64,000 bases of DNA from Phycisphaerae bacterium (GTDB lineage: Bacteria; Planctomycetota; Phycisphaerae; UBA1845), in the NCBI GenBank assembly GCA_963666835.2, contig CAXXGO010000006.1:1376001-1440000 (forward strand), in the 5' to 3' direction. The stretch's first letter is position 1, and each line of letters begins with the position of its first letter. A model generated the notes under the pieces. It saw nothing but the letters and a program-made list of their open reading frames with translations. It ran no database searches and was not told the DNA's origin. Shown one piece after another: positions 45,371 to 64,000 of the stretch. Both the position numbers and the translations under genes were made by a program.

Positions 45371-48300
45371 CTATTCGTTTACGTCCAGCCCGCTGCCGAA
45401 GGCTTGCTGGAAGATTGCCAAATCCCGGAGATCCACGTCGCCGTCTTGGACAAAATCGATCCAGCCGCAGCAGGGATCGGCATACAGCGGAGGCTCGCAC
45501 GGCGAGGGGTCACACGGATCCGTTACGCACACGAGCCAAGAGGGCCAATCGGGCAGGTTGATGATGCGATCATCGCTGAAGTCGCCGCGCACGTCACATT
45601 CGTCGGGGTGGGCATTCTCGTTGCAGTCCGGTGCACCACCAATAACGATCTCCTCCGTATCACTTTGATGGTTACCGTTGCAGTCGTTGAAGCAGGTAAT
45701 GAGCATCTCTCCGCTGCCTTGGGCACCGTTGTAGCCGCCGATGCGGATCACATAATCGAAGCCCTCTTCAACCGGAAACTCGACAAGAGACCCGAGGCCA
45801 CCGCACTCGTCATCGTTGCATCTCCAAGCCGCCGGCGCCGTGGGACAGGCGCCTCCGTCGTACACTGCCAGCTTTGTGTTGTACGCGCTGGCGCACAGAT
45901 CAACGGTGGCTAGACCCTGGCAGGACGACGTATACCGGTACCATACGTCGTTCTCGACATGAGTGTATCCCGAGAACTCACAAGCTTCCGGTTCATCCGG
46001 TCCGTCGGTCGTGGCCCCCGTATTGCCGAAGAAGTAGTGGCCTTCCGTGAGGGAGGTCGCGTCGGCACAGTCATCGTTGCTCGGCCAGATACGCAGGGCA
46101 AAATCGCCGCCGGCGCACTCGGGATTCGTGATGTCGTTGTTGCACACGTCGGCGTGAATCGAATAATCGCCGGCCACTTCGGGGACTCCCGTCACCAGAC
46201 CGCCGAAGTGATGCACCTGCAGACCCGGCGGGACGCCATTGGCGGCAACAAAGCGCTGACCGCAGCTTCCATGGTACTGTAGCTGGGTCTCATACGGCTG
46301 CCCCTGGAATCCGTCGGGAAGCGTCCCACCGTAGACGGTAAGCGGGTCCGCCACCTCCGCCACCCGTAACGGGAATGTCCCCTGATACAACGGCTGCACA
46401 CCGTAACCGGCGACACGGATGCGGACCTCCTGATCCTGTAGGACGGAAGCGATGGCCGCCGAGCGAAGACCGCAGTCCACGGTCTGATCCGCGTAGTTGT
46501 CGTTACACGTGATCTCCGAGCCGCTGCAATCGTCGTAGAGACTGATCACGGAGTTGACGAGTGTGCCTTGATCGATCTGGCACGTATCCACCCACAGCTC
46601 GCCGTCGCAGCGCGGGGCGTAGGTAAACCACACGTCACTGCTGGTCGGAGCACAGTAGGTCCCGATCGTGCTCGTGTTGGCTCCGGTGTTGTCGGCGATT
46701 GTGGTCCCCTCGGAAACCGGGAAGGCCTCCTCGCATATTTCGTTGGCCGGGTTGCAGTTTACGTTCGGTGTGCAGGTTCGGCCCCTGGAGAGGTTCAGTC
46801 TGAAGGGGCCGGCTTCGTCCTCGTAACCGTGGACCAGAATGTGGTAGATCATCCCGGGGGCCGCGCACCAGGATACTGATGATTGCACGCCGCAGGCGTC
46901 GTTGTTGTACCCCACGCAGGTCAATCCGCCGCAGCCGCTGCAGAAGACCGTGATTCTAGTGTCGAAGTCCGCCAAACCGCAGGTTGAGGCAGTCATGGTC
47001 GTGCCCGTGCCCAGGACCTTGTACCACACGCCGGGAGCTGTCGGCACGGTATCGGGCTGGTCATCGCAGACGGCGCCCGTGTCCACGGTCATGCGGCCGG
47101 TATTGCCGGGTGTGACAGAGGGGATGGTCGTGACCTGAACGGCGTCGTCGCAGTCGTCGTTGATCGGCAGAAACTGGTGCTTGAGAGTCAAAGGGTATCC
47201 CTGGTCATCGGCCCCACCACCGACCTGGATGTAGTAGGTCTGGCCGGCATTCAGGCGCAATGCCGGAGGCATGACGCAGGGCCGGTCGCAGTCGTCGAGC
47301 TCGGGGCAATCGGTCGCGCAGATTATCTCATTGGACTCGGTTGCCGGGCAGCCGGTGTGCACGGCGATGAAAGGATCCAACAAGAGAGACCCGGTATCGC
47401 ACAGATTGAGGTAAAGATACCCCTCCACCGGGGCGCTGTACTTGTACCAGACGTTGACGCTTGGTTCGAACGAACTGGCGCAGCTATGGGGTGCGTCGCT
47501 TACGGCCTGGGTGGTTGATCCGGTGACCTCGTACACGCCGGTGAAGACGTGGCGCGGCAGCACCGTATGGTTCGGTGTGATGTTTTGGGCGCTGCCGCAA
47601 ACGTCGTTATCCGGCGGGTTGGGACGCAGGTCTGCCCACCAGATCCATTCCTGCCCATTGGGGTGAATTCCCCGTCCGGCCATTTGTTTACCGTCACCGG
47701 AGATACGAAACACGTCAATGAACTTCCATCCTGCTATTTTGGGAGCCAACCCGGCGGCTTGCAGCACCTGTTCGATGAGCTGCGGGGGGGGGCCGACAAC
47801 CGTTCCCAGATGACACCACGGCTGCCGGACGATCCCCCGATCAGCGAGCCGTCGCGGTTCGTGCAATAGGCTTTGCCGTGTATATCACCCGGCACGAACA
47901 GAGGTAGTATGGTCATAGCGCGTGTAGAGATGGTCCAGTATACGGGGTAATTGGGGTCGTGGTCGGAGTTGATGTAATGGCCCACGACGTAGGCGCCGTT
48001 GCCGGAGATGCCGGCGACAAGAGAACTGTCATCCGGCCCGCATGGACGGGTGTCCTCAAGCTTGTACAGCGTTCCACTGATCGACACGACAGGGCGAAAG
48101 TAATCGCCCAGTTCCCCGCTTACGCCCGCAATGACGCTTCCATCGTCTGAGACGGCGACCATGAAGGAGTCCTCATCGGCACCGTATCCGCAATCGCCGG
48201 CATCCAACCTGCCCAGGTCGGAGATGTTGCCGTTTTGCCACCGGACACCGCGGCGCCAGTACTGCATGAAGGCGGGAGATTCTTCATAGTCGTACCCGAC

Positions 48301-48753
48301 GACTACAGTACCGTCCGGAGTGCTGTCCTGCGGATAGGACTGATCATGCAGTCGCGGCCACTCTGTGAATCCACCTGTCTCATACACAAACGGCTTGACG
48401 TCGTCGATCGGCCAGTTGACCACATGATGCACGCCGGTTTGACAAGCCATGAAGATCTTCGAACCTGTCGCGTTTACTGCACGAGCGAGGCACCCCAGCC
48501 AGTCGGATGCCTGCGAAACGGGAAACGGAAGCCACTCGAGACCGTAAGTTGGCGTCCATCGAAAAGCCTCACGGGCTCCAGGCGCGGGTGACGGCCTGTC
48601 GCCGACAATCACTTGGCCGTTATCGGACAGACCGAAGCTGCGGCCTGCCGGGGAGTTGGGGACGACCGCACGGAAATCGGACGGGTACGCCTGCGTTCCT
48701 GCCAGTGCAGCCAGAATAGCCGCCACAATCGGGCACGGCCGTTTGTTACCCAT
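45371..48753 (-). pseudogene. Large secreted protein (HAF-like repeats + Cys-rich PPC-like modules + dockerin-like tail) frameshifted at a C9 tract
   Basis: ORF 47734-48753 has RBS, signal peptide and S.DG.V..G repeats; ORF 45371-47866 continues in another frame from the G9 run at 47784-47792 (+ strand); NDxCxxA, VWY and C ND modules. Confidence 0.8.
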
Positions 48754-48791
48754 CGCCTTGCTCCTCTTATCAGAATAACCGGAATAACCGG

Positions 48792-49180
48792 GGGACAGTC
48801 ACCTATTCACCGGCTCCTTTCTGTATGACTGTTGTGCCTTCTCCGATGGGGCGCGGTCTTCTGGGGCGACCCACGGGTAGCGGGCGGAGCCGACAGTTCA
48901 GCTTATGCTAGATCTTACTCAAGAACGAGTCGGTGGCCAGCGGTCGTCCGCGGTGGGTGCATCTACGCAGCTTGGCCGAATCTTCCAGGTCGTCGGGCTC
49001 ACGCAGGATTCCCCGCCGCTTTTCCAGCTTCCATTCGCTGGCCCATGCGGTCAGAACAAATTGATGGGTCTGGCCATGTCAACAAATCAGTGACTGTCGC
49101 GGGTTTAACGTAATGCCATAAATAGGTGACTGTCCCCGGTTTTGCACCGGTTTTGCACAGTCCCCGGTTTTGCACAGTAC
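48792..49180 (-). mobile_element. Internally deleted, degenerate copy of the Y1 element (3' gene fragment between end motifs)
   Basis: 48792-~49055 aligns with 39070-~39333 (includes an in-frame stop); variant motif at 49084 and full motif at 49120-49136 followed by CGGTTTTGCAC repeats. Confidence 0.85.
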
Positions 49181-49254
49181 CCAGTCGCAAACCGGTCCTA
49201 CGGACTTCCCCCACGGCTAAAGCCACGGGCCACCCGACCGAGGGTGACGTATTG

Positions 49255-51135
49255 CTAGTGCTTACTCTCAAACGGTATACGAAGGTGGTAGACGCCTCGT
49301 TCGAGGTCGCTTTCGACGGCGAAGCCGCATTTGTGGAAGACGCGGAGCATTCCGTGGTTCTCGGCCAGCACGTCGCCGGTAAAGCCGGCGATGCCGTTGA
49401 TGCGGGCGGCATCCACCAGGGATCTTACCAGAGCCGTTCCGACCCCTCGCCCCTGCCAGTCGTCGCGCACCAGGAAGGCCGCGTCGGCGAAGTTCGTGCG
49501 AAGGTCTTTCCCATAGTGGGCGATGCCGATGATCTCCCCACTGTCAGTGGAATCGGTGAGCATGACCAGGGCCATGTCCGCCGCGTAGTCGACCCGCAGG
49601 AACTCCTGCAGCTTCTCGTGGGGCAGGGCCTTGATCATTCCGAAGAAGCGATGGAGGACCGACTCGGGCGACAGCTTGTAGAACAGGTCGCGCAGAAGAG
49701 ACTCGTCGGTCAGCTTGAGCGGCCTGATGAACGCCTTGGCGGAGGCCTTCAAGGGCACCCACCGCTCCAGATCTTCCGGATAGACCGGGTTTTTCTCCGA
49801 CAGTTCCATCTGATCGGGGTAGACCAGGTTTCGACCCTTGGCCTCGGCCAGCAGCCACGACCGGAACTTGGGGTGAGCGACCTGAATGAGCGCCATCGCT
49901 CGCTCGCGAATGTTCTTTCCATGGAGGTAGGCCGCGCCGTACTCGGTGACTACGTAATGCACATCCCCGCGACTGGTGACCACGCCCGCCCCCTGCTTCA
50001 GGAAGGGGACGATGCGCGAGTACGTATCGCCGGCGGCCGTGGACGGCAGGGCGATGATGGGCTTGCCACCCTTGGATCGGGACGCGCCCCGCACGAAGTC
50101 GACCTGGCCGCCGATGCCGCTGTAGAAGAGCGTTCCGAGTGAGTCGGCGCAGACCTGGCCGGTCAGGTCGACCTCGATTGCGGCGTTAATGGAAATCATC
50201 TTGTCGTTCTGGGCGACGATGAACGGGTCGTTGGTGTACTCGGTGGGGTGAAACTCCACCTGGGGGTTGTTGCTGATGAACTCGTACAGTTTTTTCGACC
50301 CCATCACGAAGCTGGCCACGATCTTGCCGCGGTGGAGGGTCTTCTCCGTGTTGGTGATGACGCCCTGCTCCACCAGGGGGATGATGCCGTCGCTGAACAT
50401 CTCCGTGTGGACGCCGAGGTTCTTGAAGTCGCCCAGATAGTGCAGCACGGCGTCGGGAATCGTACCGATCCCGAGTTGCAGGGTCGCCCCATCCTCGACC
50501 AGATTGGCTATGTGCCGGGCAATCTGCTTGGCCAGGTCATCCGGCTCGCCCTGACGAGCCTCGAAGAGCGGCTCGTCGCTGGGTACCAGCATGTCGATGT
50601 CGCGAACATGAATGAAGCAGTCGCCGAGGGTCCGGGGCGCCTGACTGTTGACCTCTGCGATAACCACCCGGGCCGACTCGGCTGCGGATTTGACGATGTC
50701 TGTCGACACGCCATAGCTGCAGTATCCATGCGAATCGGGTGTACTGACCTGAATAAGGGCCACATCGATCACCACGCGCCCGGATCGAAAGAGGGCGGGA
50801 ATCTCGCTCAGGAAGATTGGGGTGTAATCTGCCCGCCCCTGGGCGACCGCGTCGCGCACGTTCGGGCCGATGAAATAGGCATTATGGCGGAACCGGTTGC
50901 CGAAGCGCGGTTCAGCATAGGTGGCCACCCCCAGGGTGAGGATGTGGACGATCTCGGTATCGCTGAGATCCTCCCGAGCGGACAACGCCGCGACCAGACT
51001 CTGCGGCTCACCGGCTCCGGAACCCACGAAGACCCGCTGTCCGTGTCGTACGGAAGCTACTGCCTGATCGGCAGTTACGATTTTCTCGGCGTACTGGTCC
51101 TGCCACGCTGGCGATTCCGTAAAGGTCCCGCTCAT
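49255..51135 (-). CDS. Acetyl-CoA hydrolase / 4-hydroxybutyrate CoA-transferase family protein fused to C-terminal GNAT domain
   Basis: GATLQLGIGTIP, GVHTEMFSDG, SGIGGQVDF.RGA, VVTEYG; C-terminal FIRPL...RFF...VRDDWQGRGVGT...VLAEN.GML.VF. Confidence 0.92.
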   Translation of the reverse strand: MSGTFTESPAWQDQYAEKIVTADQAVASVRHGQRVFVGSGAGEPQSLVAALSAREDLSDTEIVHILTLGVATYAEPRFGNRFRHNAYFIGPNVRDAVAQGRADYTPIFLSEIPALFRSGRVVIDVALIQVSTPDSHGYCSYGVSTDIVKSAAESARVVIAEVNSQAPRTLGDCFIHVRDIDMLVPSDEPLFEARQGEPDDLAKQIARHIANLVEDGATLQLGIGTIPDAVLHYLGDFKNLGVHTEMFSDGIIPLVEQGVITNTEKTLHRGKIVASFVMGSKKLYEFISNNPQVEFHPTEYTNDPFIVAQNDKMISINAAIEVDLTGQVCADSLGTLFYSGIGGQVDFVRGASRSKGGKPIIALPSTAAGDTYSRIVPFLKQGAGVVTSRGDVHYVVTEYGAAYLHGKNIRERAMALIQVAHPKFRSWLLAEAKGRNLVYPDQMELSEKNPVYPEDLERWVPLKASAKAFIRPLKLTDESLLRDLFYKLSPESVLHRFFGMIKALPHEKLQEFLRVDYAADMALVMLTDSTDSGEIIGIAHYGKDLRTNFADAAFLVRDDWQGRGVGTALVRSLVDAARINGIAGFTGDVLAENHGMLRVFHKCGFAVESDLERGVYHLRIPFESKH

Positions 51136-51582
51136 CCTCTGCTCCCCATGCGATATCAAGCCATGGCGAATGCGGTTGCGCGCCGCGCGCCACCGCCTTC
51201 TTACCCTACCCCGGGAGATTAAGCGGCAATCTTCATGCCGGACTGAGATTGGCTAGCCGTAATGGCTTGTTCGAATTCGGAGACCGTTAGGAGCTGCGGC
51301 ATGGAAAACAAGCCTGTAAAAAGCGGGGAAAGCCCTTAGCGGATGGGTGTGAATCCGGGACAGGCGCACTTGCCGTGGGTTGGGCGGGCGTTATGATGGC
51401 TTCGCAGGCTCCGGCGTGAGGCCGTCGCGGAACAAGTGACCGGCTCGGACGCCGGGCGCGTGGGCACCCACGCTGGTGGCGGTCGGTGCCGATGGGGGAG
51501 GTCCAACCCTCATCCACAACTCTGAAAAGTGATTAGTGTTTTGCGGTCCGCGACCCAGTGAAGGAGAAAGGGAGTATAACCC

Positions 51583-52953
51583 ATGATCAAATTCGGACCC
51601 GGCAACCTGCGGATCCCCCGGTTTGAGAAGCCGGTCTATCTGGTCGCAGGGGGTCTTACCGACTTCAGGAAGAAGTACCCGGAGAAGAACACTTCCGAGC
51701 TTTGCACGGAAGCTCTCCGGATGGCGGTCGAGGAGAATGACCTGAAGGTCTCCGCGGAGGAGTTTCGCCGCAAAGTGAACTGGTGCGTGTATTCCCAGTT
51801 CGCGGACCACTTCGGGGATCAGCTTCTGGCCGCCTCTAAGATCCATGACTATCTAGGATTCGACCCACTCGGCAACATCGAGGTCAAAACCGGCGGCGCG
51901 ACCGGCGGTTCTTCCGTGCTGGCGGCCGCGCAAGCGGTGGCCTCGGGCTACGCGGACTGCGTACCGGTCGTCGGCTGGGAGCGCATGGACGATGTCAGCA
52001 CGAAGGTCGGTAACTCGTACATCGCGAGTGCCGCGTGCAAGGATTTCGAGTCTGAGCTGGGCTGGATGTACGCGGCGTATTACGCGTTGATGGCTCAGCG
52101 GTATCAGTACGAGAACCAGGTGCCGCACGAGACGCTCGCCAAGATCGCCTGCAAGAACCGAGAGTACGCCGTGTATTCACCCTTCTCGCAGAGCCCGGGC
52201 AAGTACACCGTAGAAGACGTGTTGAAGAACGAGGTTGTGTCCGACCCGCTCACGTTCCTCGAGTGCTGCGTGATGAGTGTCGGATCAGCGGTTCTGATCC
52301 TCGCGGACGAGAAGACCGCATATGAGCTGACCGATACCCCGATTCGGCTTAAGGCGATCTGCGGTGGCTCGCACACATTGCGGACGGCCGACCGGCGAAA
52401 CATGCCGATCCTTCTGCTGCCCAATGAGACGGAAGAGACCTACAAGAACTACTTCAACGAGCGCTGCACTGAATGGCCGGGCTTCAGTTCGTTCTTGGCC
52501 GCCCGCATGGCGGCTTACCTGGCGTACAACATGGCCGGGATCAAGGACCCGGTAGAGGATTTCGACCTGCTGGAGACGCACGACGCGTTCACGATTAGTG
52601 ACATTCAGACATACGAGGATATCGGGCTGCGTCCTTACGGTCGCGGTCGCGAGTTCATTGAGTCGGGTGACGCGTACTTCGAGGGCAGGCTCCCGACCAA
52701 CCTATCGGGCGGTCTGATCGGCTCCATGCACGCGGTGGGTGCCACCGGGATTTTCCAGATCATCGAGGTGCTCTGGCAACTGCAGGGCAAGTGGGACAAG
52801 TTCCACGCAGACCCGGAGATGTGGACCCGGTTCGGCAAGAAGAAGCCCGCCGAGTTCCGCAGTTTGCAGGTGAAAGGCCCGAAGCGCGGCTGTGCAATCA
52901 GCCATGCCGGAACCGGTAGTCACGTAACGTGCTCGATTCTGGAGAAACCGTAG
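51583..52953 (+). CDS. Thiolase-family protein (archaeal/SCP-x-like type)
   Basis: GGGAG RBS; G.E.M, KN..YA, ETHDAFT, NLSGGLIGSMHAVGATG; paired with DUF35 gene. Confidence 0.9.
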   Translation: MIKFGPGNLRIPRFEKPVYLVAGGLTDFRKKYPEKNTSELCTEALRMAVEENDLKVSAEEFRRKVNWCVYSQFADHFGDQLLAASKIHDYLGFDPLGNIEVKTGGATGGSSVLAAAQAVASGYADCVPVVGWERMDDVSTKVGNSYIASAACKDFESELGWMYAAYYALMAQRYQYENQVPHETLAKIACKNREYAVYSPFSQSPGKYTVEDVLKNEVVSDPLTFLECCVMSVGSAVLILADEKTAYELTDTPIRLKAICGGSHTLRTADRRNMPILLLPNETEETYKNYFNERCTEWPGFSSFLAARMAAYLAYNMAGIKDPVEDFDLLETHDAFTISDIQTYEDIGLRPYGRGREFIESGDAYFEGRLPTNLSGGLIGSMHAVGATGIFQIIEVLWQLQGKWDKFHADPEMWTRFGKKKPAEFRSLQVKGPKRGCAISHAGTGSHVTCSILEKP

Positions 52954-53082
52954 GAACGGAATTCCGGACGCCCGACGGCGGGCAGGCCGGACGTCGGTCC
53001 GGCTGACACTTCGGTGTCATTCACAAGTGGAGTTTTCGCCGTCTGTCGTTCATGATTCGCTATTCATCGAGAGGTCAATACT

Positions 53083-53556
53083 ATGGCAATTGAATGGCCC
53101 ACCACAGCATGCGAAGTGCTGAACGATGATCCGTTGATCATCAAGAATGCCAAGACGTGGCATCACTCCCACAGCTACGGCGGCTGGGGGAAGTTCTTCA
53201 AGGGGCTGCGCGAGAAGAAGCTTTTCGCCACGCGCTGCACCAATCCTGAGTGTGAGGAAAACCGGCTGTGGCTGCCGCCCCGTTGCGAATGTGTCGATTG
53301 CTGGCACAAGACCGAATGGGTCGAAGCTCCCCAGCAGGGGCGGATATACACCTTCTCCACGGTGACGTACCCGGGCGAGCTATTCAAGCTCCCGGCCGGC
53401 ACGCCGCTGATCAGCATCGAGATCGAAGGGGTCTGCACCAAGCTGATGAGTTGGTTGAAGGAAGGCAAGCCCGAATTCGGAATGCCGGTGAAGGCCGTGT
53501 TCAACACTGCTAATCCGACGAACACGATCCTGGACCTGGCTTGGGTGCCGGCTTAA
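53083..53556 (+). CDS. Zn-ribbon/OB-fold protein (DUF35/ChsH2-like), thiolase partner
   Basis: FFKGLREKKL.ATRC...C......PPR..C..C, G.IYTFS, GMPVKAVF. Confidence 0.9.
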   Translation: MAIEWPTTACEVLNDDPLIIKNAKTWHHSHSYGGWGKFFKGLREKKLFATRCTNPECEENRLWLPPRCECVDCWHKTEWVEAPQQGRIYTFSTVTYPGELFKLPAGTPLISIEIEGVCTKLMSWLKEGKPEFGMPVKAVFNTANPTNTILDLAWVPA

Positions 53557-53593
53557 CGTCACCCTAAACGAATTGTGACGCAGGTAGCAGTTG

Positions 53594-53631
53594 ACGCCGC
53601 CCGGCAAGGGACCCTTGCCGGGCGGTGTTTT
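53594..53631 (+). terminator. Intrinsic terminator after thiolase-DUF35 operon
   Basis: Long GC stem ACGCCGCCCGGCAAGG / CCTTGCCGGGCGGTGT followed by T-rich run; between convergent genes. Confidence 0.75.
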
Positions 53632-53693
53632 GTTGACGTGATAGCTGATCCTGACGCCATCGCGTCCGGCCTTGCCTGCTTGATCCTCGTGTG

Positions 53694-54347
53694 TCAGAAT
53701 CGCTCGTTTCCGAATTCGGCACAGTACGGTTTTTGGCGTATCTGTGCGGACGTGCGGTTCAAAGCGTGAAGTACGTATCCTGGAAGCACGACCCTCCACG
53801 GGCCATCGCCACATAGGCCGAACTTGGGCAGCAATCTCGATTGTTGACCAGCCATCGGGTAGATGGCTGCGATGGTATGCCGGTCGACCTCAGGCAGTTC
53901 TGCCGCTTCGATCTTCAGCAACTCAATACTCACTTGGCGGTAACCGTCGAGGACAAACCCCACACAGCTATATCGGCGATACCTGCGCACCCGAGTGTTT
54001 GGATCCACCTCATCTTTCCAAGGCGGATCGACAACATATTGGCGCGTCCTTTCGGCTCCAGCAGTGTGATACTCGTCAGCGACCTCCGCGATCCATGCCG
54101 ATAGTTCCTTGATCTCATCACTGGTCAGCGGAACATGTCCTGCTACATGCACCTTCATTGCCTCTCCACGCCCGAGTGGCGGCCGCATGTGAACGGCGTA
54201 TACATCGTCCTCTGCTTCGGCAGAGCATCTATCTGCGTCGTGCAAACCAACGTGCGCTATCAGGCGACGTTCCTTGTCGGCATACATTCCGATTACATCG
54301 TACCTGGATAGGGTATGCGGCCCGCGGGCAAGATCAAGAATGGGCAT
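53694..54347 (-). CDS. Hypothetical protein, predicted permuted papain-like NlpC/P60 (YiiX/LRAT-type) cysteine enzyme
   Basis: GGAG RBS before ATG 54347; YDVI...HVGL...VH...QY...RYSCVGFVLDGY...I.L...VLPGY with His before Cys. Confidence 0.6.
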   Translation of the reverse strand: MPILDLARGPHTLSRYDVIGMYADKERRLIAHVGLHDADRCSAEAEDDVYAVHMRPPLGRGEAMKVHVAGHVPLTSDEIKELSAWIAEVADEYHTAGAERTRQYVVDPPWKDEVDPNTRVRRYRRYSCVGFVLDGYRQVSIELLKIEAAELPEVDRHTIAAIYPMAGQQSRLLPKFGLCGDGPWRVVLPGYVLHALNRTSAQIRQKPYCAEFGNERF

Positions 54348-54370
54348 TTGGCACTCCGGAATGCATAGAC

Positions 54371-55432
54371 TCAATCCGCCCCAAGCACATCAATCGCGCG
54401 GTTAAGCAAGGCGCGAGGTGCATCCGGAACCACAGCAGTTCGATTTGCCCAGACCTCTCGCAGTTCACACAGCTTGCGACGCAGCCGCCGCACGAACCAC
54501 GCGGCGCCCAGATCCCGGGCAATACTCACTACACGGCATGTTTCGCTACTTGCCATCGCGGCCAGGGCGTAGATGGCAAGGTGCGCCATGGCGGCGCTCT
54601 GGCTTACTGTAATGGCGTACCGATTCAGTAGGGACTCCGCGATCTGGGCAACTTCCTCTGCAAGATCCGCGTGCCGGTCCACATCCATCGGGGGCTGCGC
54701 TTCAAAGATGCGACCAAGCATCTTGACGGTCACGAGACTCGTCTCGACGGAATGACCCGGTTGCAGTAACGGGTGCAGAGAGTCGGCATCATCCGGGGCT
54801 AACATCGAGGCACCCGTGCGAATCGCAGCCAACACGACTGCCTCGTCGTGAGGGTCAGTGCTATCACGATACCGTTTCGCAAAGTTCAAGAACCAGGGCG
54901 CGAGTCGGCTGCTATCGTTAACGGTGAAGCTTGTGTCCTCAGCGAGCAGGATCATCTTACGCAATCGAGGCAGGTCTGATTGGGCATCCGCCTGGAGGAT
55001 CTCCGCAGCAAGTACCGCCGGAGCCCATAACGAGATGTCATCCGCATTGGTTTCGCTGTCCCGACCATGCAAAGGCCTCTCAACTGCGGCGGACTCCGCC
55101 AACACCATACCGGCAGCGGTCCTCTCGTCCCAACAACTGCCACGGTTCGACCTCCCGCATTGCTGCATCAATGCTACTATATCCGAAAGGCTGAATGCTC
55201 GGCTCGCCCCGTAAGATGGCGCGTCAATCCCGTCTGACTGGATGTCCCCGCCACGCTTCCGGATTCCACTTACTGCTCCCCACTCGCCTTCGACATGCAA
55301 TTGGTCTTGTGCAGGACTACAGAATCTATAGGGACCATACCCGTACTGCCAATCTGGCCCATCTGAAACCCGACGGCCTTCTAGTTCCGTTGATGGTGTT
55401 TGTCCCTTTTGACCTTCGATTGCATCAGACAT
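54371..55432 (-). CDS. Hypothetical protein, low-complexity N-terminus and alpha-helical C-terminal domain
   Basis: 353-aa ORF overlapping upstream stop (ATGTCTGA); Leu/Ala-rich amphipathic helices. Confidence 0.65.
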   Translation of the reverse strand: MSDAIEGQKGQTPSTELEGRRVSDGPDWQYGYGPYRFCSPAQDQLHVEGEWGAVSGIRKRGGDIQSDGIDAPSYGASRAFSLSDIVALMQQCGRSNRGSCWDERTAAGMVLAESAAVERPLHGRDSETNADDISLWAPAVLAAEILQADAQSDLPRLRKMILLAEDTSFTVNDSSRLAPWFLNFAKRYRDSTDPHDEAVVLAAIRTGASMLAPDDADSLHPLLQPGHSVETSLVTVKMLGRIFEAQPPMDVDRHADLAEEVAQIAESLLNRYAITVSQSAAMAHLAIYALAAMASSETCRVVSIARDLGAAWFVRRLRRKLCELREVWANRTAVVPDAPRALLNRAIDVLGAD

Positions 55433-56150
55433 CGCTCGGTCCCTTCTGCATACCGCGAGTCAGCGGAAGATTGGGGACACGCCCAGGCAGCCAAGTCTCT
55501 ATGGATTGACCGAGAACGTCGAGTTTGCCTTTTGCCTTCTTGGCCTTCTCTGCAACTTCTACCACCTGCTCGTATGTCAGCTCTGCTTCGAAGGACTTTG
55601 GCAATCCGTCCTCACCAGTGGCGATGATATGCAGACGCGTGTACGGCATCATCCCCTCAAGCTTCTCTCGATTCCGATCGAAGATCGGTCTTAAGTCGCA
55701 GATCAACTCGACCGTCTCAAGTTGCTGCCCGGTCGTTTTCGCCAGACGCTCGGCCTTGCGATAACGAACCAGAGCAGGGTAGGGTTGGATCAATTCACCC
55801 AAAGCTTGCGTCAACCGGGTGAGTGTGTCCTCGTCGCAGGGCGGATGCTCCTCGTCAATGGCCTGCTTCAAGTCTCCGATGATACGCTCCACGTCTGAAG
55901 GCATAAGGTTTCGGATTGCTCTTCCCACCGCGTCCGCCGACTTACGGTCTTGGATGACCTCGTGGATCGATGTGAGCAGACTTCTGAGATCTAGAAACCT
56001 ATCGGCTTTGGCCAAATGCTTCCGAATCCCTTGGATCTCTTCGTCCGATAAGCTAGCGATGGTCTTTAGGTCGTCCACCATGCCCGGGATGGAGCTTGGG
56101 CGCTCAAGGAACGGCGAGTAACCTCGGATGAACATGACTGGCTCTGGCAT
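55425..56150 (-). CDS. Hypothetical protein, COMMD-like architecture (helical N-domain + COMM-like C-domain)
   Basis: GGGGA upstream of ATG; helical first ~140 aa, then LETVELICDLRPIF / YTRLHII / SFEAEL strands and final helix TYEQVVEVAEKAKKAKGKLDVL. Confidence 0.6.
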   Translation of the reverse strand: MPEPVMFIRGYSPFLERPSSIPGMVDDLKTIASLSDEEIQGIRKHLAKADRFLDLRSLLTSIHEVIQDRKSADAVGRAIRNLMPSDVERIIGDLKQAIDEEHPPCDEDTLTRLTQALGELIQPYPALVRYRKAERLAKTTGQQLETVELICDLRPIFDRNREKLEGMMPYTRLHIIATGEDGLPKSFEAELTYEQVVEVAEKAKKAKGKLDVLGQSIETWLPGRVPNLPLTRGMQKGPSDV

Positions 56151-56457
56151 GATCTTCTATCCCCGGTTTTCGCCCTCGAAGCGGGCTCTTACCTTGTGTC
56201 CGATTGTGCAACGCTGTGAAATCTAAGTAATTCCGCCACATCACTCCGCCGAATACTAGGCCGCGTCGGACTTTTGGCAACCCCTCTGAATCATCCGACA
56301 GCGACGGTGTACATCGCAACAACAAACGACACAGATAGACGCCTGGGTCTGCGATCACCAAGAGGACCGCGGGAGCGTTGGCAGAAGCGAAGGCAACCGC
56401 ATTGCGCAACGGGCGTCTGATTTAGCTGATAGGCGTCGCGGCGTTCTCCTTTCTCGC

Positions 56458-57276
56458 CTACTTACCGCCGGCGCACATGGGGCGGAGGGCTTCGAACAGG
56501 CGGCGGCTTTCGCGGCAGGCGCAGTCGCACGGGTCACACACGAAGAACGCTCTATCGCCCCGGCCGCGGGTACGCCGAAGAAGCCGGCCGATCCTCCGTA
56601 CGCACTCTTCGGTTTCATCGGTGGCTTGGCTTGCGGCGGTGTTCACGATTACGACGTCGCTTTCGAGTAGTCCGTGGTACGGTTGTTGGAGCTGGACGCG
56701 TGTCGCCAGCTCGTCACCGAGCGGAGAACAGAGGAACGCCTTCATTTGCGATCGGGTGAGCATGTCACGCTGCTCGGGAGGTTGCGGCTCGTCCATCGTC
56801 GTGCCGGCGTCGAGCCCGAACATCTCCGAAGCGAACGCATGCGTGTCGTCCAGAATCCGCTCAAACTCGGTCGCCGCACGCACCGGGTCCCGGAACACGA
56901 CATCCAGTCTCGTCGGGGTCGGCATGACGAAGACCCGGTAGTCGTAGGGGTAGGCGTAGCGTAGGGCCGCGTCGGCGTCCGCCTCTACGGCCACAGACCC
57001 GAAACGGTCGACGCGATGTATGGCGGTCAGCGCGTCCGGCAGGACTTCGAAGACGTGATCCGCGTCGTAGTCGATCCACCGAGCGCTGGCGATACCCCAC
57101 TTTCGCGGAGAGCTGGCCCCCTTGGTCGGCGGGAATTTGTCGCCCCCTTTTCTGACCAGGCGGATGTAGTGTGGACGATGCGCCCACAGCCGATCGACCA
57201 TTGTCCGGATGACGGCGCTCTTTCCCGAGCGTCTAGGACCACTGACAAACGTTACACCCAAACCCATATTCGCCAC
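56458..57276 (-). CDS. Hypothetical P-loop NTPase-like protein
   Basis: N-terminal VTFVSGPRRSGKS Walker A-like motif; later VAVEAD and SDVVIVN strands. Confidence 0.6.
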   Translation of the reverse strand: MANMGLGVTFVSGPRRSGKSAVIRTMVDRLWAHRPHYIRLVRKGGDKFPPTKGASSPRKWGIASARWIDYDADHVFEVLPDALTAIHRVDRFGSVAVEADADAALRYAYPYDYRVFVMPTPTRLDVVFRDPVRAATEFERILDDTHAFASEMFGLDAGTTMDEPQPPEQRDMLTRSQMKAFLCSPLGDELATRVQLQQPYHGLLESDVVIVNTAASQATDETEECVRRIGRLLRRTRGRGDRAFFVCDPCDCACRESRRLFEALRPMCAGGK

Positions 57277-57557
57277 GCACTCCGCATTCCGTACGAACGT
57301 ACACCGCCGATTCTAAATCATAGGCGCCGAATCGGCCCCGAGCCACGCCGGTACGGGCAATGTTCCCGGACTCGCGGCACGATCATGTCACAACGGACGT
57401 GAAAGCTGTTATCCCGCAGAGTTATCGGAATGCCAGTTACTGTCCGGGTTGCGTTCATAGGGGAAAGTGCTCGACTCAGGACGCCGGCCGAATCGTTACC
57501 GGGGTGAGCCGTCCGGTTGTTTACCGATGCCGGGATGGCGGGCCTGCTCCCGGCAGT

Positions 57558-58178
57558 TCATGAGCCGGACGCTGCGAATCCTGCGGGCTGGTCTGCTTCC
57601 GACTTTGCTCGCCGCAGGGCGAGGATCAACTCGACCTCGCCGGTGGTGCGTTCGGCCTCGCGAGCGATATCCGCAATCGGCAATCCGCCGTCTGCCAGGC
57701 GATAGACGAGGGCATGTCGCTCGTCCGGCACCTCTTCCGTCGGGGGCGAGGCTGCTCCGTCGTCCTCGCTTACGGTTACGTCCAGCGCATCTCCGGTGCC
57801 GACGGTCCGAGCCAGGCGAGAGAGCTTCTCGATCCGCTCGTCGGCGTCCCGGATCACCGTCTCCAACTTGGCGAACCGCGTGTCGATTCGCCCATGAATC
57901 TGCCGGGCGAGCTGGTCCAATTCCAACATCACCCGCTCGACATCATGTCTGACGGCGGACTCTCTTTGCAGGTCGGCATACATCTCGCGTGCGGAGGTCC
58001 GCGGAGCCGTTCGGCGGACGCGCAGCCGGCGATACGTGGAGATCATTAGTATAGTCAGCCCTCCGACGGCGAGAGCCAGCATGATGAGCTGGGAAGTGCT
58101 CACCGGATTCGCCCCGAAGGATGCCGCCAAACCGGCAGAGGCCGCGTTAGAACTGGTCAACGGTATCGTGACGTCCAT
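57558..58178 (-). CDS. Membrane-anchored coiled-coil protein with C-terminal HTH-like motif
   Basis: One TM helix, coiled coil, tail VYRLADGGLPIADIAREAERTTGEVELILAL. Confidence 0.7.
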   Translation of the reverse strand: MDVTIPLTSSNAASAGLAASFGANPVSTSQLIMLALAVGGLTILMISTYRRLRVRRTAPRTSAREMYADLQRESAVRHDVERVMLELDQLARQIHGRIDTRFAKLETVIRDADERIEKLSRLARTVGTGDALDVTVSEDDGAASPPTEEVPDERHALVYRLADGGLPIADIAREAERTTGEVELILALRRAKSEADQPAGFAASGS

Positions 58179-58260
58179 GCCACACCTTCCGGTTCCTTCA
58201 ATGCCCGGGTCACATCCTCCGGCGACCCGTTTGATTGGCCGTTACTCGTACGTCCGCTTG

Positions 58261-59445
58261 TTAACCCGAGGGATCCGTCTTGGCGCTCCATGCTGCGTTG
58301 GCTGCGGCGACAACCTGACGGAGCGGCACTCCATGCCGCTCGGCGGCGGCTCGACAGTCCTCGTACTCCGGACTGGCGGTAATCAACCCGCCGCCCTCTC
58401 CGACTTTCATACGCAACTTGCCGTAGGTTGTTGACACGATCTCGTGGTGGCGGCACAGAATCGTACGTTTTGTCTCATGCCGACGTATACCGAACGTCGG
58501 CGTCTCGGCAAACAGGACCCTCTCCAGAGCCGAGACTCGTCCGGGTTCGCAAAGAACGGTCAATACCACGCCCGGACGGGACTTCTTCATCTGTATCGGC
58601 ACGGCATACGCGTCGAGTGCACCCTCGGCCATCAGACGCTCGATGCAGTAGCCGATCGTCTCCGCTGAGACATCGTCCAGATTAGTTTCCAGTACTGTTA
58701 CCCGGTTGGTGTCGGTATTGCCGGGGATGTCCCCGACCAAGACGCGCAGGATGTTCGGACGACCACGACCCTCCCGCGTGCCGGCACCGCAACCCACCGT
58801 CCGCAGTGTCATGGCCGGCGGCGGCCCGAATGCCGCCGCGAGAGTACTGAGCAACGCTGCTGCGGTAGGTGTGACCAGTTCGCCCACTTCGTCACCCGGA
58901 CAAACCGGTATATCCTTGAGCAGCTCGATCGTGGCCGGCGCCGGCACCGGCAAGGTGCCGTGGGCGCACTTGACAGTTCCCGAGCCGATCGCCACCGGGG
59001 AGCAAGTTACTTGTTCTACGCCGAGCAGCTCGAGAGCCAACACCGCTCCCACGATGTCGAGGATGGAATCGACCGCTCCAACCTCGTGGAAGTGGACTTT
59101 CTCGATATCCGAACCGTGTACCGCCGCCTCGGCTTCGGCCAGTCTCCGGAACACTCGGCTCGCTTTGTCCTTAACGGAATCGGACAGGGTGGAACCCGTG
59201 ATGATCCCCAGGATGTCCGCCAGGTGCCGGTGCGGCTGATCGGCCGGGTCCTCCAAGTCCACTTTGAAACGAGTCGCGGCGAAACCTTGCTTATTGGCTC
59301 GCTCGATTGAGAGCGTGTGCCCCCCGATCGCGAGACCGGATAGTCCGGCACACAACGCCTGCCTTGGCGCGCCGGCCGCTATCAGCGCGGCCACGATCAT
59401 ATCGCCGCCGGCGCCGCTAAAGCAGTCGAAGTGCGCGACTTTCAT
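58261..59445 (-). CDS. larC: Nickel pincer cofactor biosynthesis protein LarC
   Basis: DCFSGAGGDM, AEA.VHG...VHFHEVGAVDSI.DIVG, HG.LPVPAPAT, ELVTPT, LETNLDD, MKKSRPG, PEYEDC; no internal frameshift. Confidence 0.95.
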   Translation of the reverse strand: MKVAHFDCFSGAGGDMIVAALIAAGAPRQALCAGLSGLAIGGHTLSIERANKQGFAATRFKVDLEDPADQPHRHLADILGIITGSTLSDSVKDKASRVFRRLAEAEAAVHGSDIEKVHFHEVGAVDSILDIVGAVLALELLGVEQVTCSPVAIGSGTVKCAHGTLPVPAPATIELLKDIPVCPGDEVGELVTPTAAALLSTLAAAFGPPPAMTLRTVGCGAGTREGRGRPNILRVLVGDIPGNTDTNRVTVLETNLDDVSAETIGYCIERLMAEGALDAYAVPIQMKKSRPGVVLTVLCEPGRVSALERVLFAETPTFGIRRHETKRTILCRHHEIVSTTYGKLRMKVGEGGGLITASPEYEDCRAAAERHGVPLRQVVAAANAAWSAKTDPSG

Positions 59446-59461
59446 TTTGACCCTCGGTGTC

Positions 59462-61375
59462 CTACTTGCTCGCTACGTTCTTCGGATAACCGAGCTTGCT
59501 CAGAGACCCCGCTATCTCATCGAGAATCACGGGGTCATCGATCGTCGCCGGCATGCGATACTCGGTACCATCCGCAATCTTCTTCATGACCCCGCGGAGG
59601 ATCTTGCCCGACCGCGTCTTAGGTAGACGTTGAACGACGGTGGCGGTCTTGAAGGCGGCTACCGGACCGATCTTCTCGCGGACCATTTGAATCACCTCCT
59701 TGGTGACTTCGCTGTGATCGCGATCGACCCCGGCTTTCAGAACGATGAAGCCCACCGGGATCTCGCCCTTGAGTTGATCGGCCACGCCCATGACGGCGCA
59801 TTCCGCCACGTCCGGGTGGGAGGCCAGTACTTCTTCCATGCCGCCGGTGGACAGCCGATGTCCGGCAACGTTGATGATGTCGTCGGTCCGGCCCATGATG
59901 AACAGATAGTCGTCTTCGTCCTTGAAGCCGGCGTCGCTGGTGATGTAGTAGCCGGGGAATTCCGACAGATACGAGTCTTTGAACCCCTCGTCGTTATTCC
60001 ACAGTGTCGGCAGGCAGCCCGGCGGCAACGGTAGTTTGACCACGATATTGCCGATCTTTCCGGGCGGCAGTGTCTCGCCACCGTCGTCCAGTACTTGTAC
60101 GTTGAAGCCGGGAGCGGCCTTGGTGGGCGAGCCGGGTTTTACCGGCAGTCCTCCGAGCCCCATGCAGTTTGCGGCGATTGACCAAGCCGTCTCGGTCTGC
60201 CACCAGTGATCTATCACCGGTACCCCGAGCCTCTCCTTCGACCAGTTCAACGTATCCGGGTCGCACCGCTCCCCGGCCAGGAACAGGGTTCGCAGGCTCG
60301 ACAGGTCGTACTTCTTCATGTAATCGCCGGCGGCGTCTTCCCGCTTGATCGCCCGGATCGCCGTCGGCGCGGTGAACAGCACGTTGACTTTGTGATCTGA
60401 GACCACCCGCCAGAACGCTCCCGGGTCCGGTGTGCCGACGGGTTTGCCTTCGAAAAGAACGGTCGTGCATCCCTTCAACAGAGGTCCGTAGATTATGTAC
60501 GAATGGCCCACCACCCAGCCGATGTCGGACGCCGCCCAGTACACATCGCCTGCGTCCACGTTGTAGACCGTCTTCATGCTCCATTTCATTGCCACCGCAT
60601 GGCCGCCGTGGTCGCGAACCACCCCCTTGGGGATCCCGGTGGTTCCGGAGGTGTACAGGATGTACAGGGGGTCAGTTGCCGCAACGGACACGCACTCGGC
60701 CGGCTCGGCCCCGTCCAGAACCGCATCCCAATCGAGGTCCCGCCCGTCCATCATATTGGCCTTGGCCTGGGGACGCTGGCGGATGATGCAATGCGTGGGT
60801 TTGGACTCGGCGATCTCGATCGCCTCGTCCAGAAGCGGTTTGTATTCGATAACGCGTTTGCCTTCGATCCCGCACGACGCCGAGACGATGATCTTAGGCT
60901 TGGCATCGTTGATCCTGGTAGCGAGTTCCTTGGCCGCGAAGCCGCCGAATACTACCGAGTGTACCGCCCCCAAGCGTGCGCAGGCGTACACGGCCACGAC
61001 TGCTTCGGGGATCATGGGCATGTAGATGATGACCCGATCACCCTTCTGGACGCCCTGGCGGCGCAATGCCCCCGCGAACGCGGCGACCTCGTCGCGGAGT
61101 TCCCGATAGGTGTATTTCCGCACGGTTTCGGTGACCGGGCTGTCGTAGATCAAGGCCGGCTGCTCTCCCCGCCCGTTCAAAACGTGGAAATCGAGTGCGT
61201 TGTAGCATGTATTGATCATTCCGCCGGAGAACCAGCGGTAAAACGGCTTGTTCGAGTCGTCCAGTACTCGGTCCCATTTCCGATCCCAGTGAATATCCTC
61301 CGCCACCTCACCCCAGAATCCCGTGGGGTCGTCGATCGATCTGCGGTAGTAGGAGTCGTAAGCCGCTTGGTCCAT
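59462..61375 (-). CDS. prpE: Propionyl-CoA / acetyl-CoA synthetase
   Basis: AGGAGA RBS; YTSGTTGIPKG, DIGWVVGHSY..YGPL, DHWWQTE, LPKTRSGKILR; C-terminal PATIDDP. Confidence 0.88.
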   Translation of the reverse strand: MDQAAYDSYYRRSIDDPTGFWGEVAEDIHWDRKWDRVLDDSNKPFYRWFSGGMINTCYNALDFHVLNGRGEQPALIYDSPVTETVRKYTYRELRDEVAAFAGALRRQGVQKGDRVIIYMPMIPEAVVAVYACARLGAVHSVVFGGFAAKELATRINDAKPKIIVSASCGIEGKRVIEYKPLLDEAIEIAESKPTHCIIRQRPQAKANMMDGRDLDWDAVLDGAEPAECVSVAATDPLYILYTSGTTGIPKGVVRDHGGHAVAMKWSMKTVYNVDAGDVYWAASDIGWVVGHSYIIYGPLLKGCTTVLFEGKPVGTPDPGAFWRVVSDHKVNVLFTAPTAIRAIKREDAAGDYMKKYDLSSLRTLFLAGERCDPDTLNWSKERLGVPVIDHWWQTETAWSIAANCMGLGGLPVKPGSPTKAAPGFNVQVLDDGGETLPPGKIGNIVVKLPLPPGCLPTLWNNDEGFKDSYLSEFPGYYITSDAGFKDEDDYLFIMGRTDDIINVAGHRLSTGGMEEVLASHPDVAECAVMGVADQLKGEIPVGFIVLKAGVDRDHSEVTKEVIQMVREKIGPVAAFKTATVVQRLPKTRSGKILRGVMKKIADGTEYRMPATIDDPVILDEIAGSLSKLGYPKNVASK

Positions 61376-61717
61376 CCGTTCTCTCCTGTCTGGCTCCACG
61401 TTGTTGTCAATGCTCGGCGGTCCGTAGTCGGGCGCCGCGTAGCGTACAGAATACCGAGCCGGCGGCTGGTCCGCCAGGGTGTCGCGACGGAAGGTGCGGC
61501 GCAATCGGGTGATTCGGTTGGGGGGACGTCTCGCCGGCGGTTATGGACCGTACTTTGGCCGTTCGACGCGGGGACGGACGGGGATGCCCCGAGAGAGCTC
61601 TTAGGCCCTCCGACGATCCGGGCAGTACACCGGCCGACCGCTTCGGGCGGGCCGAACGGAACCGTTCTTACGGCAAAGTGACTATTTGCTGTCACTGGCA
61701 CCGCACTTAGGGTGAGG

Positions 61718-62374
61718 TCACGGACGAGCCATACCCTCGCGAATGGCGAAGCGAGTCAGTTCAACGCGGTCGTGGATTCCGAGTTTCGCCATCAGGTTCG
61801 CTGCGTGCCGATCGATGGTCTTCACACTGAGGTCCATTGTGGCGGCGATTTCCTTTTTGGCCAGTCCACGGGCGATGTACTGCAGGATCTCGTGTTCCCG
61901 GGGGGTCAGCGTCGAGACCCGCGTCTTGGATCGCTCGGCAAGCTTGATGGATCCGGAGTCGATAACGATGCGCGAGCGGACCTCCTCGGAGAAGAACGCT
62001 CCTCCGGCCGCGACCTCGCGGATGGCGGTTACGACAACCTCGGGCGGCTCGCGCTTGGTGATGTACCCGCTGGCCTTGGCCTGCAGGGCCTGCTCGATAT
62101 AGCGATCGTGGCAGAACGCGCTGAGGAAGATTATCCGCGCCCCGAGTTGGAAATCGACGATTCTCCGCGCCGCGTCGAACGGAATCAGGCCCGGCATGTC
62201 AATGTCCATCAGGACCACGTCGGGCTTAGAGTCCATGGTTTTCTCGATGGCCTCATCGGCTGTGCCGGCAGTTCCCACCACCGACATATCCGTCTCGCGG
62301 GAGAGTCTTTCCCGGACGGCCCCGCGCACCAGCGCGTGGTCGTCCACGATTAGAATGCGAATGTTGCTGTTCAT
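61718..62374 (-). CDS. NarL/FixJ-family response regulator
   Basis: IVDDH, PDVVLMDIDMPG, GYITK, LTPREHEIL...IA..M.LS.KTI..H. Confidence 0.95.
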   Translation of the reverse strand: MNSNIRILIVDDHALVRGAVRERLSRETDMSVVGTAGTADEAIEKTMDSKPDVVLMDIDMPGLIPFDAARRIVDFQLGARIIFLSAFCHDRYIEQALQAKASGYITKREPPEVVVTAIREVAAGGAFFSEEVRSRIVIDSGSIKLAERSKTRVSTLTPREHEILQYIARGLAKKEIAATMDLSVKTIDRHAANLMAKLGIHDRVELTRFAIREGMARP

Positions 62375-64000
62375 GCTTCGACCACAGCCTCCTCTACAGG
62401 TTCGGCGAACATAGATGCCGCCAGAGAAGTGAGCTCACCCATCTGAAAGGGCTTCCGCAATACGCATAGTCGTTTACCGAGTTCGTCAGAGAACTCCGGG
62501 CTTGTGCCTCCGGTGACGATGATGACCGGGAGATCGGGATAGGACGTTCGGATATCGCTCAGGCACGAGCGTCCGCTCTTCTTGGGCAGGTCCATGTCCA
62601 GCACCACCAGCCGCAAGCCCGGACCGTATTCCTCGACGAGATCCATAGCCTCGACCCCGTCCTTCGCCTGAATGACCTCGTGATGCTCCGCCCGCAGAGT
62701 TGAGGCCATGATTGACCGAATGTGCCACTCGTCCTCAACAAGCAGGACCAGCTCTCCCCGTCCGGAGGGCGTTCTGTCCTTGCGCGAACTCGGCACCACG
62801 TCCGGGGGGACCGTGCAGACTGGCAGCCAGACGGAGAAGCGCGTGCCTTTCTGACAAGCGGTCTTTACACCGATGTGCCCGCCATGGTCGGCCACGATGC
62901 TGTGGATGACCGACAATCCCAGCCCCGTACCTCTCCCGCGGCCCTTGGTGGTGAAGAACGGTTCGAAGATCCGGCCGACCTTGTCCGCGGGGATGCCGCA
63001 TCCGGTATCTTCAACCGCAAGAACCACGCCCGCGCGCCGATGGTCGGCGAAACCCAGCGGTACGCCGAGCTCCGCCCCATCCGACTCCGCGCGGACCGTG
63101 ATGTTCAAGGCGCCCCCGTCCGGCATGGCGTCGCGGGCGTTGAGCGCCATGTTCATGATGACCTGCTGAAGTTGCGTGGCATCGGCGTTGACCCACACCG
63201 CCGGTGCGGAGGCGGTATTGTCGGTGATCTCGATCCCGGCCGAGAGCACCCGACGCAGCAGCCGAGTGGACTCGCGCACCACACTCACCAGATCTACCAG
63301 GGCCTTCGTCGTAGGCACCTTATGAGCGAAGGTCAGCAAGGACTTGGTTACCCCGCTGGCCTGTTGGGAAGCCTCTTCGACGATGTCAAGCGAGCGCACG
63401 GCCGGATGCCCTTCGGGCAAGGTCTCTCTGGCCAGGTCCGTATATGCGAAGATCACGGTCAGCAAGTTGTTGAAATCATGAGCGATACCACTGGAGAGGG
63501 TGCCGACGGCATCCATCTTCTGGGCGTGCCTGAGTTGCTCCTCCAGTTCGATTCTCTCGCGGTCCGCCTGCTCGCGGGCGGTGATGTCTTGGGAGACCTC
63601 GATGACGCCGACGACTTCGTTTCGGTTGTTGCGTACCGGATGACCGCGTACGAGCCAAACACGGTCTTCGGAGATCTTCATCTTCGTTTCCTGCGACCGG
63701 CCCGTCCGGACGGCTTCAACCACGGGGCAACCTTCGCAGCTTACGCCCCGACCGTGCCACGCCTCGTAGCATTTCCTTCCGGTGACCTTCCCGCCTCTGT
63801 CACCGGCCATAGCCAGCGCCGTGCGGTTCGCCCAGATTATGTTCAGGTCCGTATCGTGATAAACGACGTATTCCTGCATTCCATCGAGAACCGCGGCCTT
63901 CTCGCGTTCGGCTATCCACAGGGCTTCTTCCGCCTGTTTGCGATCGGTAATGTCGCGAATGCTCGAACGGTGGCCGAGGCAATCTCCATCCGGGTTGAAG
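62371..64000 (-). CDS. 5'-truncated hybrid PAS sensor histidine kinase with receiver domain
   Basis: Frame open to window edge (IRDITDRK PAC motif); AHDFNNLL, NARDAM, DTGCGI, FEPFFTTK..GTGLGL; receiver LLVEDE...LDMDLP...KPF; ATGA overlap with regulator. Confidence 0.95.
   Translation of the reverse strand, partial: FNPDGDCLGHRSSIRDITDRKQAEEALWIAEREKAAVLDGMQEYVVYHDTDLNIIWANRTALAMAGDRGGKVTGRKCYEAWHGRGVSCEGCPVVEAVRTGRSQETKMKISEDRVWLVRGHPVRNNRNEVVGVIEVSQDITAREQADRERIELEEQLRHAQKMDAVGTLSSGIAHDFNNLLTVIFAYTDLARETLPEGHPAVRSLDIVEEASQQASGVTKSLLTFAHKVPTTKALVDLVSVVRESTRLLRRVLSAGIEITDNTASAPAVWVNADATQLQQVIMNMALNARDAMPDGGALNITVRAESDGAELGVPLGFADHRRAGVVLAVEDTGCGIPADKVGRIFEPFFTTKGRGRGTGLGLSVIHSIVADHGGHIGVKTACQKGTRFSVWLPVCTVPPDVVPSSRKDRTPSGRGELVLLVEDEWHIRSIMASTLRAEHHEVIQAKDGVEAMDLVEEYGPGLRLVVLDMDLPKKSGRSCLSDIRTSYPDLPVIIVTGGTSPEFSDELGKRLCVLRKPFQMGELTSLAASMFAEPVEEAVVEA

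Follow-up and report, generated by a model that had tools for sequence, protein, structure and literature searches.

A prokaryotic COMMD-like protein at the head of a three-gene cassette with candidate toxin–antitoxin-like partners in a Phycisphaerae bacterium

COMMD-like proteins of prokaryotes have been described in PMC13392464 (Liu et al., Nat Commun 2026), the main text of which reports 250 bacterial and 111 archaeal members that build 8- and 10-subunit rings and leaves their function open; the accessible text of PMC12962969 adds members in Asgard. In Myxococcota, the main text of the former places such genes beside T6SS-like or secretion-system genes and states that AlphaFold gave no complexes of the encoded proteins with their neighbors, and it treats CT584/Cpn0803 and Pur-alpha/Whirly as not strictly COMMD-like. 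This was the only publication on the genomic context of COMMD-like proteins that we found. Its main text contains neither the operon nor the toxin–antitoxin-like partners seen around the gene considered here, and its supplement file 2 holds no Planctomycete or Phycisphaerae entries. The arrangement of a COMMD-like gene with a tailed protein and a papain-like enzyme was not found in the literature searched, which took in few subscription papers and, of PMC13392464, the main text and supplement file 2, and no work linking the COMM domain to phage defense was found there. A second point of comparison is provided by toxin–antitoxin–chaperone (TAC) systems, in which, as outlined in the accessible part of bioRxiv 10.1101/2024.02.24.581848, the antitoxin has a disordered tail that is held by a SecB-like protein, itself able to sense phage proteins.

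We analyzed a stretch of 64,000 nucleotides from a Phycisphaerae bacterium (assembly GCA_963666835.2, contig CAXXGO010000006.1), hereafter the window, which carries the genes listed in Table 1. Because PMC13392464 and PMC12962969 already report proteins of this type, gene 1 is a further member of a published family; the protein is known in kind, and its genomic context, an operon with swappable partners, has no counterpart in the literature searched.

Table 1 Features of the cassette (positions in the window)
Feature	Position	Strand	Basis or remarks
Three-gene cassette, probably acquired horizontally	53694..56150	minus	GC, GC3, unshared flanks
Gene 1, COMMD-like protein, 241 aa	55425..56150	minus	ATG start; HN ~22-140, COMM 143-220
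Gene 2, 353-aa soluble protein, candidate antitoxin/inhibitor	54371..55432	minus	8-nt overlap with the end of gene 1
Gene 3, 217-aa permuted papain-like (NlpC/P60-type) Cys hydrolase, candidate toxin/effector	53694..54347	minus	Fold match

Gene 1 and the COMMD fold

Gene 1 almost certainly encodes a prokaryotic COMMD-like protein, a homology that single-sequence searches missed and that was found by profiles and structure. With the single sequence, Pfam returned no family, COMM_domain included, and phmmer against the PDB returned ApoE alone (E 0.14). A profile of 120 close relatives (A1) matched the solved bacterial COMMD-like protein 9q6a at E 3.6e-4, and a profile of 139 diverse relatives (A4) matched it at E 2.1e-12 over profile positions 14-225. 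PF07258 was touched weakly by 5 of 139 gene 1 relatives (best E 0.026), and an Atlas COMM_domain cluster (score 0.79, 23% of members) was treated as a lead only.

The AlphaFold2 model, built from a 120-row alignment (pLDDT 84.1, pTM 0.71), has predicted helices at residues 22-32, 36-47, 55-63, 69-81, 84-99, 107-120, and 125-140, then a COMM part of three strands (143-157, 164-178, and 184-191) and a helix (193-220), followed by ~20 low-confidence residues. Foldseek with this model, a comparison that the preliminary description had suggested, gave 12 matches at E ≤ 0.001, the first ten of which were all COMMD or COMMD-like chains, namely 9q6a/9q6c (TM 0.58-0.62) and human COMMD chains. In VIA comparisons, 200 residues of 9q6a could be aligned to model residues 15-228 (Z 12.3, rmsd 3.6); human COMMD proteins (COMM-only chains) reached Z 6.0-6.7, Cpn0803 6.0, and the rest at most 4.1. 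The preliminary description, written without database searches, had proposed a prokaryotic relative of COMMD proteins, and on this profile and structure agree; every motif it quoted is present in the gene 1 reading frame. It had expected ~140 residues of helices, three short strands, and a long terminal helix, of which the layout stands and the word "short" does not, two of the strands being 15 residues long. Both the three-strand, one-helix topology and significant COMMD matches, on which it had let the assignment depend, were found. It made no mention of the operon.

Like the described prokaryotic proteins (PDB 9q6a/9q6c/9q6d, MBK5214510), gene 1 combines HN and COMM domains in a chain of nearly the same length (241 versus 240 aa) and matches them by both profile and structure over its full length, at 15-19% identity to 9q6a; it is a single copy in the source genome (tblastn plus two profiles; genome 92% complete). 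The two-domain fold is also common to human COMMD1-10 of Commander/CCC (8f2r, 8p0w, 8esd, 6bp6; Foldseek E down to 6.7e-5), and COMM-only chains give TM 0.71-0.77 by target length, but identity is 12-17% and the whole-chain TM only ~0.3; moreover, Commander assembles ten paralogues into a heterodecamer whereas the source genome has one gene. A related sheet-plus-helix dimer unit occurs in chlamydial CT584/Cpn0803 (Z 6.0, far below 9q6a) and in Pur-alpha/Whirly (Z ≤ 4.0). In its predicted model, gene 1 resembles COMMD more than it does CT584/Cpn0803 or Pur-alpha (Z 12.3 versus 6.0 and 4.0), and by homology its product may form rings.

Homologs, third-position divergence, and the contig of a second study indicate that gene 1 is a real gene. 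At E ≤ 0.001 we obtained 157 homologs among 1021 candidates and 678 representatives (50% identity); against three related loci, divergence was 0.48-0.53 at third codon positions and 0.15-0.20 at second positions, and the second-study contig covers 52624-57128 of the window with 5 differences. Of 17 related genome loci, 14 bear the titles of Planctomycetota lineages, and two homologous proteins are named Desulfobacteraceae and Hydrogenedentes; the sampling of loci covered one phylum and one small phylum. The best conserved motifs in a diverse alignment (A5) are K132-A133-x-x-L136 and C151-D152-x-R154-P155, plus K209; the strands and helix carry conserved hydrophobic residues, which would be compatible with a buried interface. 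Seven gene 1 relatives have long N-terminal extensions, in which no Pfam domain was found.

The cassette and its partner genes

Gene 1 heads a mobile, translationally coupled operon. Both partners are kept in the same order in 44 of 45 close loci, the exception being L011, although this count overstates independence because it includes duplicate loci (e.g., L004/L035, L016/L069, and L060/L061); the 45 are those of 63 related loci with at least 1800 bases downstream, and the 18 dropped include L073, which has other partners. The same partners accompany gene 1 down to ~30% identity, with coupled starts and unrelated flanks. The GC content of the cassette is 0.567 versus 0.607 and 0.622 in its flanks, GC3 is 0.57-0.65 in its genes versus 0.72-0.81 in seven flanking genes, and 17 related loci yielded none of four flanking genes of the window; 24 of 24 family genomes carry the upstream flank gene. 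Within the phylum, COMMD-like profiles matched 10 of 401 genomes (4 of them by weak hits in long frames), 4 of 36 genomes of the same family (one weak), and 26 of 301 genomes of another class.

No empty site was found: among 29 flank-gene loci of relatives, none has a COMMD-like gene within 1.5 kb and none has the two flanks joined, and no contig joint skipping the cassette was seen. Searches of viral contigs, plasmids, and phages gave no match to the cassette, nor did viral structures at E ≤ 0.001. Insertion next to tRNA genes was considered as a general route and dropped, a tRNA gene being present at only 7 of 60 loci. By eye, the neighbors of related loci are mostly housekeeping genes. On one side of the cassette (56458-59445, minus) lie genes that by eye encode a P-loop-like protein of 272 aa, a membrane-anchored winged-helix-like protein of 206 aa, and a LarC-like protein, which remain grouped in many genomes, both of the family and of the order; on the other (51583-53556, plus) a thiolase-like gene (by eye) and a ChsH2-type OB-fold gene (Pfam E 1.6e-9) converge with it. 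At the close cassettes L047, L053, L055, and L187, one or another of genes 1-3 is split in two by stop codons or frameshifts, reflecting either decay or sequencing error.

Gene 2 has a variable N-terminal tail (~1-135) followed by a conserved C-terminal domain, and 152 homologs were found; column conservation is 0.23-0.36 at residues 1-120 versus 0.56-0.85 at 141-340 (aromatic residues 8.2% in the tail versus 5.7%). It had no significant match in Pfam, PDB, or NCBIfam. A complex prediction of one copy of gene 1 (15-228) with gene 2 (120-353, tail omitted) scored 0.00 in a run whose controls did not fold, and carries no weight for or against binding.

The longest reading frame of gene 3 starts from a TTG at 54374, and a GGAG precedes the ATG at 54347, which is the likelier start. 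The model of its product (pLDDT 94.3) was compared by VIA, the best matches being YiiX 2if6 (Z 9.4, rmsd 4.1, 148 aligned), 3kw0 (7.7), and TseH (7.1), followed by RID, a deSUMOylase, and PLAAT4; the top rows all have the same fold. Foldseek with this model returned nothing significant (E > 0.1), and no match to permuted papain-like enzymes was found at the sequence level. We take YiiX 2if6, 3kw0, TseH 6v98, deSUMOylase 2wp7, PLAAT4, and CLN5 to constitute the permuted papain-like NlpC/P60 group, with which gene 3 has the fold and the His-before-Cys order in common (His32/His53 before Cys128). In 108 rows C128 is invariant, H32 and H53 are at least 90% conserved, and M1-P2 is nearly invariant; H32 and C128 are also invariant across 12 diverse third genes. 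On its predicted structure, gene 3 is thus a permuted papain-like Cys hydrolase with a predicted catalytic Cys. Neither gene 2 nor gene 3 matched known toxin–antitoxin or defense families, apart from one weak PDC-S70 match (E 0.006), and hydropathy gave no transmembrane segments in the proteins of genes 1-3.

Partner exchange and pairs that lack gene 1

The COMMD-like gene is first in all 41 more distant loci, where one or two close genes on the same strand follow it. Third genes at these loci were labeled papain-type (18), MBL (7), PIN-like (3), ART-like (2), aspartyl protease (1), and DUF7689 (1); Pfam supports the labels MBL, DUF433, DUF5615, PIN, DUF5678, aspartyl protease, and DUF7689, several of them below the curated cut-off, the ART-like label was given by eye, and seven papain labels rest on a shared His...Cys alignment. 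Five of these seven form alignment A6, which matches A2 (probability 79%, E 1.5e-5). The remaining nine loci comprise two with a Q-D-C-D motif, one with DUF433 and no called third gene, two others, and four unknown. The gene 2 slot is occupied by DUF433 in three loci and DUF5678 in one, to both of which we ascribe an antitoxin role, and DUF433/DUF5615 is presumably an antitoxin/PIN toxin pair; the two families of gene 2 proper are not detectably related to each other. In a tree of 47 rows, several of them long-branched, the distribution of the papain label requires 7 changes, of which well-supported branches force 5, and L011, with DUF5678 and an aspartyl protease, groups inside the window's clade as the sister of the window plus L002 (support 98/84).

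Several individual loci merit description. At L011:768-2600, where the gene 1 relative (44%) has swapped partners, a convergent AAA ATPase and RloB-like pair (by eye) adjoins. COMMD-like genes at L077:2438-3441, L186:4665-5623, and L185:4743-5327 are followed by PDC-M32A/B-like proteins (weak PADLOC matches, E 0.004-0.05) and a third gene that is ART-like by eye. For MBL partners, PADLOC gave LmuA-type and 6A-MBL leads, the latter far below cut-off. An apparent insertion interrupts the MBL partner gene at L167:5491-8246, at L174:5340-6611 the gene after gene 2 encodes a DDE transposase (Pfam E 1e-15), and at L173 and L188 the partners of the COMMD-like genes fit no toxin–antitoxin pattern.

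The partner pair also occurs by itself. Within one class, a papain-type gene follows the COMMD-like gene at 16 of 32 places, a proportion that is partly circular because the peptidase profile was built from COMMD-linked genes, and a COMMD-like gene is missing ahead of 17 of 33 papain-type places; these are 32 of 34 and 33 of 36 places, one weak match and four fragments having been dropped. The DNA surrounding the 17 places gave no COMMD-like match, two of them lying at contig ends; at three, gene 2 belongs to the window family, and six have a different first gene of 155-256 aa. A family of ~250 aa, in place of a COMMD-like gene, occupies the first slot before gene 2 and the papain-type gene at L227:3861-4622, L229:3991-4752, L231:3997-4764, and L234:3955-4707 (minus). 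A resemblance of the alternative first gene to TIGR04255 was considered and dropped, with no match in NCBIfam, PADLOC, or PDB.

Tail length differs between these settings. In the window family, the gene 2 tail has 130-209 residues behind a COMMD-like gene (15 chosen loci) versus 78, 88, and 265 at three loci without it; in the second family it has 137-173 where a COMMD-like gene is first (5 loci), 69-102 behind another first gene (6), and 106-230 where gene 2 stands alone (4). This difference should be read as a trend and not a test because it depends on longest-ORF starts and related loci, and it is blurred by L221 (265) and the four stand-alone genes (106-230). Stand-alone gene 2 copies at L230:3519-4178 and L225:3339-3923 (minus) have N-termini that look by eye like classical antitoxin DNA-binding domains, that of L230 like a ribbon-helix-helix; the libraries run confirmed neither.

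Possible mechanism and relation to known systems

We see an even chance that an accessory COMMD-like ring controls a toxin–antitoxin-like inhibitor/effector pair. Genes 2 and 3 would form this pair in the cytoplasm, and the COMMD-like protein, an optional accessory subunit, would assemble, as 9q6a does, into COMM-domain dimers and rings of 8 or 10 subunits. It would bind the gene 2 protein at its variable N-terminal tail and thereby hold the gene 3 enzyme neutralized, the complex coming apart upon a stress or invader signal. This role may be likened to that of the SecB chaperone in TAC, where the genes stand in the opposite order and the chaperone has a different, unrelated fold. The fixed gene order, sporadic spread, swappable partners, occurrence of the pair alone, longer tails, the aromatic-rich tail, and soluble proteins support such a mechanism; window partners without a known toxin–antitoxin or defense family, no match found on phages and plasmids, the small share of loci with a tRNA gene, mostly housekeeping neighbors, the Myxococcota contexts with no complexes by AlphaFold, the partners at L173 and L188, and the narrow phylum sampling weaken it. 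The full version, with the ring as a tail-binding sensor, is doubtful. Equally tentative is the broadest version, by which many prokaryotic COMMD-like rings would be the sensor or chaperone of an undescribed three-part toxin–antitoxin class: the rings would hold an N-terminal addiction tail attached to unrelated antitoxins, a phage or stress protein would compete for the ring and free the toxin, the papain-fold enzymes would be a new toxin family, and the Commander ring would derive from a bacterial conflict scaffold that binds disordered tails.

One may alternatively postulate that the three proteins make up an enzyme complex formed constitutively, or a protease or deacylase module of the stress response, in which the COMMD-like ring scaffolds the enzyme via gene 2 as adaptor and no toxicity is involved. 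Third genes are mostly hydrolases (papain-type, MBL, and aspartyl protease), the C-terminal domain of gene 2 is well conserved, and eukaryotic COMMD rings scaffold partners according to the main text of PMC13392464; we nevertheless consider this unlikely, since the same slots are filled by PIN-like and DUF433 pairs, genes 2 and 3 are found without gene 1, and the distribution is sporadic. A secretion-system or membrane-trafficking role, as for the Myxococcota homologs or by analogy with Commander, is barely credible: T6SS-like genes do lie near Myxococcota COMMD-like genes in the main text of PMC13392464, and TseH, a T6SS effector, is among the fold matches of gene 3, but by eye neither the ORFs of 48000-64000 nor the surroundings of 17 related loci showed a secretion gene, and the same text reports no prokaryotic CCDC22, CCDC93, VPS26C, or VPS35L. 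No VgrG, PAAR, DUF2169, or OB-fold injection genes were seen by eye in 48000-64000, where the Pfam scan covered only 6 ORFs.

The leading position of the COMMD-like gene would also suit a protein that regulates the operon through transcription or nucleic-acid binding, uses the COMM sheet in the manner of PC4 or Pur-alpha, and is no chaperone. Such a function is improbable: it would draw on the invariant basic residues K132, R154, and K209, a fold that weakly resembles those of Pur-alpha and PC4 (Z 3.7-4.0), and a window gene 2 that has no recognized DNA-binding domain, yet the gene 1 protein is net acidic (34 K+R versus 39 D+E), COMMD-like proteins appear to have no nucleic-acid-binding surface according to the main text of PMC13392464, and the longer tails would be left unexplained. 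Finally, partners that vary widely and are mutually unrelated could mean that the COMMD-like protein acts alone, for example in defense or stress, while toxin–antitoxin pairs hitch-hike on or stabilize the cassette. We find this quite improbable given that the same two partners are retained to ~30% gene 1 identity, with coupled starts amid unrelated flanks, and that the COMMD-like gene is always first and closely coupled in the examined loci.

The question of function posed in PMC13392464 becomes approachable with a compact soluble cassette, a predicted catalytic Cys, natural COMMD-less versions, and a defined tail. If the reading of the COMMD-like protein as chaperone or sensor is true, the cassette would represent a non-SecB class of three-part toxin–antitoxin systems, and further eukaryotic machinery would be rooted in bacterial conflict systems; if it is false, gene 1 is one more member of the published family.

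The nearest functional parallel would be TAC (HigBAC, MqsRAC, and CmdTAC), as described in the accessible part of bioRxiv 10.1101/2024.02.24.581848. Like TAC, the cassette is a three-gene operon that joins an accessory protein, oligomeric in TAC and putatively so here, to a two-gene pair, the toxin–antitoxin nature of which is here putative; in both, the protein in the antitoxin slot carries a poorly conserved extra tail and the pair is swapped modularly. The accessory protein is SecB in TAC, whereas in the cassette it has a COMMD fold, and the TAC order of toxin, antitoxin, and chaperone with a C-terminal ChAD contrasts with an order of accessory protein, candidate antitoxin, and candidate toxin with an N-terminal tail. 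Because both fold and gene order differ, the cassette lies outside the TAC class.
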